Source of the DNA: a virus
Lineage: Duplodnaviria; Heunggongvirae; Uroviricota; Caudoviricetes
Virus record (IMG/VR): IMGVR_UViG_2718218227_000014
Direction: 5' to 3' (one strand)
DNA: 42,529 nt
Position numbers: made by a program. Positions 27,001 to 30,000 of the stretch are shown one piece after another. The first letter of the stretch is position 1; every line of letters starts with the position of its first letter.

Positions 27001-30000
27001 GCCCTCAGCAACCGGCGGTGGTAACCCCATAAATTCAGTCAGAATATCGGTCAACCGGTATAGCTTGAGTTTGTCATGTCCACCAGCGGGACGAATGTTT
27101 TTCAGTCTTGCCACGACAGTCTGGCGGTGCAGACCAGATAAAGCCGCCAGTTGATTAATATTCAGCACCAGGTTTTTCAACTCATGATCCATATTTCCTC
27201 CGGAGAGCTTTAAACATGCATCGTGCGAACAACTTTAAGAAAACGCGTTCGATGTCGAACAAAAAACACTCAATTCGACATACAAAAAACAAATAACCAT
27301 TAATAATCAATAAGATGCAAAGATGATGGTGGCCGATAAAAATGCAAAAACTAGCCTTTTTCCGCGACGCTCCCGCCCCGTGGCAGGCCACCCCACCGGG
27401 AGGAGCCGTCAGCCTGAAAGCCATGACGAACGTCTGATACAGCCCTTGCATGAATGGCATCGGGATAATCCAGAAAGGAATAGCATCGACCCACAAGAAT
27501 CTGTGTGAGTGTCCTGTTTCTTCCACCCCCGCACAGGACTGGCGAGCATGAGGGACAAACCCGCGAATCATTAGCGCGGTAAAAACCCGGTGTGCATCGT
27601 TTTTGATTATTCCCGCACACTCGCGCAGAAGGAGTTCCCCGTCGGGCTACGGTCATGGTTAATGCGGGAATACAGCGACGATACAGCGCATGATGTGTCA
27701 GGCTTGAATACCTTTATCCGTTAAAAGGGATATCAGTTAAGTTATCCCGTGTAGGGTATAAGCCATTATCAAAGCCACTCTGTAGGGAGTGGCTTTTGTA
27801 ATGGCAATAAAAAAGCCCCGCGAATGCGAGGCTAAATCCAGGTATTTTTAATGACTGGCTCTTATCTCAACGCAGCCCCTTACCGCGCGCCAGATGCTCA
27901 ATATCAAGCATCAGCAATGAGATGTTTAACCATGATTCACTCCAGAAGTGAGCACCACCCTGTCTACAGAGCCAGATGTGAAGGATGATGAGTAAAATTA
28001 TCGCTATCATCGAAGGCATTGCGTCCTGATGTATTCCTGAAGCGTTCTCAGTGCTGTTTGGTCGCGGATAATTCCGTCCCGGATACCGAGAACGTTTCGT
28101 CCAGCAACTGGAGAGAGTTCGACGGTGGCATCATTGCCCATGCCGGAGGCGCTGGAGGTTTCGTCTGAGGATGGCACAGGGCATTTTCCTTTGACGAACA
28201 CCCGACCACCATTATCAAGCTTGCGCCGAAGAGCATCATTTTTAGCTTTCGCATCAGCTAACTCCTTCGTGTATTTAGCATCGAGTGCATCAGCAGCACG
28301 CTGGCGCTGCTGCATGTCAGTAATGGTGGCGGTCGCCTGCTTCAGCTCACTGACTTTTTTATCACGCTGTTCTTTATAGGCGATGGCGTTATCACGGTAA
28401 TGATTAACCGCCCATGACTGGCAGACGATGATGCAGATAACCAGAGCGGAGATAATCGCGGTTACTCTGCTCATTGTTGCCCCCACAAACAGACTTCACG
28501 CTCAATCTCGCGGCGAGTCATCAGCCCTTTCCATTGCTTACCGCCAGCGTATGTCCAGCGCCGTAGCTGATCACATGCGCCTTTGATATCACCCTGGTTT
28601 ATTTTGCGAAGAAGCGTCGATGTTCTGAAATTACCAGCGCCCACGTTGTAAACGAACGAGTAAAGAGCGCCGCGCGTTGTTTCCGGTATATCGACTTTGA
28701 TGTACGGGTTAATTTGTCTGGCGACCGTGGCAAGGTCTTTATTCAGGAGGGCTTTGCATTCTGCTTCGGTATACGTTTTACCGGGAATGATGTCTTTTCC
28801 GGTGTGTCCGTGACATACAGTCCATACGCCAACGATATCTTCGTATGGTATGTAGCTGACACCTTCCAGGCCATCGTCACCACTCGGACCAGTGATGAGC
28901 ACAGACGCTATGGCAGCAGCCCCACCACCAATAGCAGCAGCAACAGCCTTGCGTAATGATGGCGACATTATTCACCTCTCGCAGCCTTACGCTTATCTTC
29001 TTTAATCTTGAAATAAAGGTTTGTCAGATACGTCAGCAAGCCAAACACCAAGCTACCCAATACGCCTATTGCCACCCACTGGGATGGGGAGACTTTGTCC
29101 AGCAACTGCAGTAGCCAGTATCCCGTCCCCACCGCTGACGTGGTGTATGACACACCTGTTGTTATTTTTTCCATCTGGTACATACCCCGTCTCCCGTTAT
29201 CCGGAAGCTGACAACAATAAAAAGCCACCAGTTAATTCCTGATGGCCCTGATGCATAAACGTCATAATACCTGACTGTTATGATTGACAATAATGATAAT
29301 GTTTATATAGAAAGGTTCCCGATGTGTGTTACATATCATTTCTCCACGGGGAATATCCCCACGCCAGCGCAGACTCTTTTACCCGTTCTCTTCTGCGCTG
29401 GCTCTTTTTTATTATGCTGCTGCATTTACCTCTGGCACCATGCTTTCTATCTCAACACAATACGTGGTACTTCTTGTAACCAATATCATAACGATTAATC
29501 GACATAGAATTTCTCCCGTGTACAGGAACAGAGTTAAAAAGCCGGAACCGGAATCAAATCACAGGATGACCATCTGCCAGTGGCAGGTCATAAAAAAAAG
29601 GCCGCGCCATGCGCAGCCAGAACTCACAAGGAAAATGATAGAAGGAAATAACATTAGTGATGTACGCATGGCGCCTCCCGCTAAGTTCTGCAATGATCAA
29701 ACAGAACTCGCTACGTGCCCTTAAAACTCGATCATTTAGCCCCTCCAAGGAGGATTCACCATGCGGTTGATTTTTTAATAAACAGTAAACAAAAAAGTCA
29801 AGAATTATTCATTCTGTTCTTTCATCATCGGCCACAGCAATACCACAATGCCGCAGACCAGAGCGCCATCAGTCAGTACCAACATTATCCTGCTGGTGAA
29901 ATCCATCATCACCATCACTAAAAGCAGGATCACAACAGCAAGCAGACACAGTTTATAAAACAATGTTCAGGAAACGCATTCAGCATGCCTAAGGTTCTAT

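Follow-up and report, generated by a model that had tools for sequence, protein, structure and literature searches.

We analyzed a stretch of 42,529 nucleotides that is filed as tailed-phage record IMGVR_UViG_2718218227_000014 and is referred to as the window throughout. The whole window matches Escherichia coli O157 strain 644-PT8 (NZ_CP015831.1, 4153748-4196276) with 0 mismatches in 42,529 bases. It holds a defective lambdoid prophage located between ybhC and the nleH1-1/ybhB side which, from its position, we take to be an Sp3/CP-933K-type element of O157:H7. On the minus strand, positions 28007-29183 carry four intact and overlapping reading frames for the holin S, the endolysin R and the spanin subunits Rz and Rz1 (Table 1). 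We consider it very probable that these genes represent the complete late-lysis module of the prophage, that the module follows the phage 21 pathway and that it is transcriptionally orphaned.

Table 1. Genes, regulatory elements and insertion sequences in and around the lysis cassette. Positions are those of the window. IS, insertion sequence; MFE, minimum free energy; ORF, open reading frame; SAR, signal-anchor-release; SD, Shine-Dalgarno sequence.
Feature	Position	Strand	Details
Intrinsic-terminator-like hairpin with T-run	27833-27814	-	closes the lysis unit
50-aa membrane ORF	27867-28019	-	hydrophobic N-terminus; overlaps Rz stop by 13 nt; phrog_11822, E=4.5e-35 (unknown function); WP_001139679.1
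Rz, inner-membrane spanin subunit	28007-28474	-	155 aa from ATG; ATG overlaps R stop (ATGA)
Rz1, outer-membrane lipoprotein spanin subunit	28048-28254	-	68 aa; wholly inside Rz, +1 frame; start 220 nt after Rz start
R, SAR endolysin, GH24 lysozyme	28471-28968	-	165 aa; start overlaps S stop (TAATG)
S, class II holin, phage-21 S family	28968-29183	-	71 aa, starts MYQM; 68-aa form from second ATG at 29174
SD-sequestering RNA hairpin (predicted)	29191-29207	-	6 bp, CUUCCG-GAUAA-CGGGAG; MFE and centroid fold
Terminator-like hairpin	29249-29221	-	11 bp and U-run; directly 5' of the S ribosome-binding site
Strong terminator-like hairpin	29618-29600	-	8 bp, 7 GC, T8; between moron genes and S
tR'-like terminator	30930-30909	-	consensus scan
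pR'-like promoter (putative)	30992-30964	-	overlaps Q 3' end; consensus scan
Q, C-terminal fragment	30976-31237	-	RefSeq pseudogene; aligns to positions 664-1201 of the intact Q segment (L001:13000-14200)
IS629/IS1203 in Q	31238-32547	-	1310 bp; 4-bp flank overlap consistent with target duplication; ALIL frameshift pseudoknot
Q, N-terminal fragment	32548-32979	-	about 144 of 229 codons
IS629/IS1203 in tail-fibre gene	4942-6251		1310 bp
IS629/IS1203 in tape-measure gene	14177-15490		1310 bp

All four products match Pfam profiles above the gathering scores. S covered 63 of the 64 positions of PF04971 (P21 holin S; E=1e-32, 112.2 bits at a cut-off of 26), R matched the phage lysozyme profile PF00959 (E=1e-45, 155.5 bits), Rz matched PF03245 (E=2e-28, 99.3 bits) as well as phrog_13 (1e-73), and Rz1 matched PF06085 (E=2.5e-21, 75.6 bits). 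PHROG lysis families were matched by the cassette proteins with E-values between 1e-26 and 1e-73. Judged by these scores, the identification of the cassette cannot be chance. An NCBIfam scan of the four cassette proteins and of neighbouring proteins returned nothing above the curated cut-offs. Each of the four proteins aligned at full length to a phage homologue, and neither internal stops nor frameshifts were found in S, R, Rz or Rz1. An earlier note on this DNA had called all four frames intact and had placed an Rz1 with lipobox VVGC entirely inside Rz in the +1 frame; both statements proved correct. Longer ORFs that start at GTG (86 aa for S and 159 aa for Rz) were rejected because homologues and SD positions favour the ATG starts.

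The cassette is an already known, annotated and well-understood module in a known defective prophage. Its type is the textbook phage 21 pathway and the norm in lambdoid prophages of enterohaemorrhagic E. coli (EHEC) (PMC8136144), and the Sakai Sp3 locus has been scored positive for lysis genes (PMC2669165). In the RefSeq annotation of 644-PT8, S is labelled 'class II holin family protein' (WP_000284524.1), R 'lysozyme RrrD' and Rz 'lysis protein', and Rz1 is absent. Automatic annotation is reported to miss embedded Rz1 genes (Pinto et al. 2021, PMC8136144), and the gap at this locus is a practical point for annotation.

S is directly paired with the downstream SAR endolysin, as in the phage-21 holin family. 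Its first transmembrane domain (TMD1, residues 8-27) is weakly hydrophobic, with a mean hydropathy of 0.42 and 55% Gly, Ala, Ser or Thr, and TMD2 (residues 36-58) has a mean hydropathy of 1.6. The alignment with S21, the holin of phage 21, shows no change at G40, S44 or G48 of TMD2. These residues reportedly mark one face of the pinholin TMD2, a motif that Pang and colleagues are said to have described in 2009. The Gly/Ala-rich SAR N-terminus ascribed to the endolysin in the earlier note was readily recognized, as 70% of R residues 8-27 are Gly, Ala, Ser or Thr, and the N-terminus is that of the phage 21 endolysin R21 apart from P2S and I18A. This segment fits the pattern of an uncleaved, weakly hydrophobic SAR helix that follows basic residues. 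R also possesses E35, D44 and T50, which are said to form the catalytic triad according to structural work on R21. Searches against structures gave E=5e-106 over residues 1-165 for PDB 3hde (R21) and 7e-107 for 4zpu (RrrD of the K-12 prophage DLP12). Rz shows an N-terminal TMD followed by the periplasmic cysteines Cys98 and Cys153. Rz1 has the n-region MRKLK, the lipobox V-V-G-C19 with Ser at +2 and a second Cys at 27, and its mature part contains 7 Pro in 50 residues. The SD of Rz1 (AAGGAG, 7 nt upstream) is identical to that of phage 21.

We compared the cassette with that of phage 21 using global alignments, from which all percent identities to phage 21 are taken. The S21 query was confirmed by a 100% tblastn match to Escherichia phage 21 (OL657228.1), whose curated annotation lists the S21-71 antiholin, the S21-68 pinholin, the SAR endolysin, the i-spanin and the o-spanin within a cassette at 39866-41036. 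Both cassettes share the gene order, the overlaps between S stop and R start and between R stop and Rz start, and the embedded +1-frame Rz1. S is 74.6% identical to its phage 21 counterpart at equal length, without gaps and with an ATG-xx-xx-ATG start in both, and R is 94.5% identical with 9 differing positions; the reading frames run uninterrupted through this alignment with phage 21 S and R, which the earlier note had proposed as a check. The likeness declines within the spanin genes. Rz is 57.7% identical overall, with 66 of 83 positions shared in the N-terminal half and 24 of 73 (33%) in the C-terminal half, and Rz1 is 41% identical. In contrast, Rz of phage HK620 (NC_002730.1, 17319-17786) is 90.3% identical (67 of 72 positions in the C-terminal half) and the embedded HK620 Rz1, which also has 68 aa, is 95.6% identical, although its lipobox reads VAGC instead of VVGC. 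The description of the cassette as 'phage-21-type' is thus appropriate for the S/R pair and the architecture but not for the C-terminal half of Rz and the whole of Rz1, which represent the HK620/P22-type allele. This allele was found in 84 phage records, mainly of Salmonella P22-like phages, and in HK620 itself it accompanies a class I holin of the lambda type and an endolysin resembling lambda R.

The S proteins of the Shiga toxin (Stx) phages 933W and 1717 are 93-99% identical to S of the cassette (933W about 93%) and have the same MYQM start and upstream SD hairpin sequence; H-19B groups with 933W as the S subtype found here. Stx-phage S proteins have been classed as pinholins (PMC10462455, PMC8136144), and according to Pinto et al. 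(2021, PMC8136144) Stx phages as a rule combine a pinholin with an R21-like SAR endolysin. Unlike our cassette, 933W pairs its S with a different, Qin-like endolysin of 177 aa and with lambda-like Rz/Rz1, and carries ant between R and Rz. In DLP12 (essD-rrrD-rzpD/rzoD), RrrD is about 96% identical to R. Phage Ayreon (MF807953.1), which is viable and was isolated on K-12, shares the block of R, Rz/Rz1 and the 50-aa ORF at about 94% DNA identity, whereas its S is of the MKSM type with a basic extension, unlike the MYQM of our cassette. Terminators are annotated in Ayreon just before S and after the small ORF, at positions equivalent to those of the hairpins found here. As read from these alignments, the cassette is a mosaic in which an S of the 933W/H-19B subtype, an R21-type R and an HK620/P22-type Rz/Rz1 are set in the standard phage-21/lambda architecture. 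It represents a clean example of module shuffling, with S, R and spanins from three lineages.

The earlier note had further stated that late-gene regulation upstream of the cassette is broken. Indeed, the antiterminator gene Q is split by IS629/IS1203, and N, cI, cro, O and P are absent. Intact Q encodes 229 aa in strain PV15-279, and the reading frame in the window is broken after approximately codon 144. The arrangement of the pR'-like and tR'-like sites matches the annotated pR'/terminator layout of phage 21 and 933W, that is the lambdoid late-promoter layout. As a Q-dependent late operon the locus is incomplete, as the pR'-like site and the terminators are present and Q is not intact. No pR'-independent promoter for the cassette was identified in the consensus scan.

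Further parts of the prophage have been lost. The segment N-cI-cro-O-P-ren-ninB is deleted, leaving a truncated bet next to ninE (36067-36950); the prophage of PV15-279 retains part of O as well as P, ren and ninB. Three IS629/IS1203 copies of 1310 bp each, with 99.9-100% mutual identity, interrupt the tail-fibre gene, the tape-measure gene and Q. In the Sakai strain, Sp3 was described to lack repressor and replication functions and to retain its full set of lysis genes, and neither excision nor replication nor packaging was found (Asadulghani et al. 2009, PMC2669165). The lysis genes of Sakai Sp3 and EDL933 CP-933K occupy the same ybhC-ybhB site, and hundreds of O157 genomes carry the cassette at 100% identity. 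In contrast to the window, Sakai-type genomes and most O157 genomes have an intact Q, as do the inducible phages 933W, H-19B and 1717.

We screened 5,426 complete E. coli genomes for the junction of Q with IS629 and found it in two, 644-PT8 and 180-PT54. Matches of at least 99% were obtained in 628 records for Q with the downstream pR' region and in 367 records for the cassette with its upstream region. Q was thus disrupted very recently, and the lysis frames are not expected to have decayed. Because the junction occurs in only these two genomes while Q is intact elsewhere, finding intact frames behind a broken Q is unsurprising. A query made up of the cassette and its upstream region (window 27700-30900) has 14-18 similar places in O157 genomes, and O157:H7 genomes contain 2-3 places with matches of unspecified extent to the Q-pR' segment.

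By analogy with the homologues, lysis would proceed as follows. S would collect in the inner membrane until, at a set time, the weakly hydrophobic TMD1 exits the bilayer; oligomers of TMD2 would form small pinholes, and the membrane potential would collapse. R would have been exported beforehand by Sec and held at the membrane by its Gly/Ala-rich SAR helix; depolarisation would free R, allowing it to refold and to degrade the murein. Finally, the outer membrane would be removed by the Rz-Rz1 spanin, which is anchored in both membranes. Near-identical parts are found in viable phages, namely the S type in 933W and 1717 and the block of R, Rz/Rz1 and the small ORF in Ayreon. Transcription from the pR'-like promoter through the three terminator-like hairpins before S would require a polymerase modified by Q, and the resident Q is cut. 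As IS629 has cut Q and N, cI, cro, O and P are gone, the cassette would be silent in cis and would fire only when a compatible Q is supplied by another resident lambdoid prophage, or by read-through. Such activation in trans is plausible because O157 genomes carry many places similar to the cassette and a few similar to the Q-pR' segment. A lysis module that is intact behind a newly broken Q and could fire in trans via co-resident lambdoid prophages bears on the prophage-prophage interactions described for O157.

Several points weigh against an intact but orphaned module. A missense change could inactivate a protein while leaving its frame intact, and R departs from R21 at 9 residues, one of the changes being I18A within the SAR helix. 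The promoter and terminator calls are consensus matches, and promoter-like sites were no more frequent than in shuffled sequence. We infer the silence in cis, and recognition of pR'/qut by the Q of another resident prophage is likewise presumed. The cassette might accordingly be dead already, with at least one of its proteins inactivated by missense changes in spite of intact frames; selection would have ceased once Q, N and the replication functions were lost, and substitutions relative to the reference proteins do exist. We regard this as improbable since catalytic and structural hallmark residues are conserved, the same protein sequences occur in prophages with intact Q and are 92-99% identical to proteins of viable phages, and Q was lost very recently. 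Alternatively, the cassette might be no simple leftover, and selection might have preserved it because it serves the host, for instance in remodelling the envelope, releasing vesicles or effectors, or forming biofilms. Immunity, replication and part of the morphogenesis functions are gone from the prophage and its lysis genes are intact, R is close to DLP12 RrrD, and a host role has reportedly been suggested for the lysis genes of the K-12 prophage DLP12. However, the identity of the cassette among hundreds of O157 genomes reflects clonal strains and allows no inference on selection, the Q disruption is confined to two genomes, the similar places elsewhere in O157 genomes make this copy redundant, and a promoter independent of pR' was not identified. 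Maintenance for a host function thus appears very unlikely to us, and an intact lysis module that has recently lost its own activator accounts best for the locus.

The start of S needs to be considered separately. The earlier note had described a phage-21-type holin with an M-Y-Q-M dual start. Besides the PF04971 match, we found the codons ATG TAC CAG ATG, preceded by a GGGAG SD located 7 nt 5' of the first and 16 nt 5' of the second ATG. The geometry of SD, 7 nt, ATG, two codons and ATG is common to S of the cassette and S of phage 21. The predicted hairpin, a kind of structure that may set the ratio of the two starts, pairs the entire GGGAG, and a comparable hairpin is predicted over the SD of phage 21. 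Two in-frame ATGs are thus present as claimed, but their reading as a holin and antiholin pair was not supported, as the M-Y-Q extension has no Lys or Arg while that of phage 21 (MKS) has a Lys. The antiholin character of S107 and S21-71 is ascribed to an additional positively charged N-terminal residue (review PMC9636201), and a screen of S21-68 mutants traced the delay of TMD1 translocation to N-terminal positive charge (bioRxiv 10.1101/2021.04.20.440580). The charge that defines the antiholin isoform is therefore missing from the long form of S. Judging from the lysis-proficient phage 933W, which has the same start, S should clearly be functional in its MYQM form.

An earlier search with the holin alone had returned relatives of 92-100% identity only and was too narrow for a survey of the family. 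We therefore relied on a small-alignment search that yielded 80 loci from species-representative genomes. Outside the 933W/Sp3 clade, Lys or Arg occurs in the extension of all 72 intact family members (MYRM 29, MKSM 20, MRM 7, MLRM 6, MHRM 4, MIRYM 4, MKM 2), and the basic residue is absent only in the E. coli/E. albertii clade to which our S belongs (MYQM, MDQM). Among close relatives from viral contigs (n=80), the first ATG is kept in 59 and lost in 22, where ATA CAT CAG ATG gives IHQM. No mention of the missing basic residue in the 933W/Sp3 clade was found in the literature searched. The survey also returned S21-family holins of the E. coli type (75-93% identity) on short contigs labelled Xanthomonas pisi, Nanosynbacter, Bacillota, Veillonella parvula, Segatella copri and Geobacteraceae; contamination or mis-binning in these species-representative assemblies is the most likely explanation.

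We tentatively suggest that the 933W/Sp3 pinholin clade has lost charge-based antiholin control, with an MYRM-like extension changing to MYQM and the first start disappearing in the sister group (IHQM); this is a possibility which we would not yet call probable. If true, lysis and hence toxin release in EHEC prophages of this clade would be timed otherwise than in the phage 21 paradigm, and the missing basic residue across the 933W-type clade poses a testable question on the lysis timing of Stx phages. The opposing view is that MYQM works as a dual start in the manner of phage 21, the 71-aa product delaying lysis and the 68-aa product acting as the effector. The SD/ATG geometry and the predicted hairpin over the SD would agree with this, as would the retention of the first ATG in 59 of 80 close relatives and in 933W. 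Moreover, polar uncharged substitutions near the N-terminus of S68 slowed pore formation (bioRxiv 10.1101/2021.04.20.440580), and an extension without basic residues could thus still retard the exit of TMD1. Nevertheless we consider a working dual start rather unlikely, because antiholin character is tied to the extra positive charge (PMC9636201), because the N-terminal charge that anchors TMD1 is lacking in MYQ and carried as Lys or Arg by every one of the 72 intact members outside the clade, and because 22 of 80 close relatives in the same clade do without the first ATG, making the long form dispensable there.

Several neighbouring genes were recorded along with the cassette. The 50-aa membrane ORF downstream of Rz is conserved at the equivalent position in the viable phage Ayreon, is followed by a terminator and may be a fifth gene of the lysis transcription unit. 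Upstream, between pR'/tR' and S, lie an ORF for a 252-aa protein with multiple transmembrane segments (phrog_1521, unknown function; no Pfam match) and a DUF3927 ORF (29805-30807, minus strand), which look like moron cargo. Phage 21 has tRNA genes in this slot, and in 933W it is held by tRNAs, stxAB and nanS-p; the interval between Q and S in the window, unlike that of phage 21 and 933W, yielded no tRNA genes and no Rfam family except the IS629 frameshift pseudoknot. A plus-strand ORF at 29326-29724 (132 aa, hypothetical in RefSeq) has no PHROG match, overlaps the strong minus-strand terminator and is probably not a real gene.

On the far side of Q, within 33454-34628, lpxR (lipid A deacylase, plus strand) is flanked on one side by a 72-bp remnant (34557-34628) of an antiterminator gene other than Q and on the other by ylcG/Q. 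This arrangement suggests that the Q region was swapped at an earlier time and that this replacement carried lpxR in as cargo. The annotation divides the portal gene (22881-24462) into two minus-strand coding sequences, 22881-23216 and 23338-24462, pointing to a frameshift or small deletion. The tail-fibre end of the prophage (1-3742, minus strand) harbours the type III effector genes nleH1-1, nleC and nleB2, and fragments of genes for tail-fibre assembly and of the YkgJ family lie there as well.

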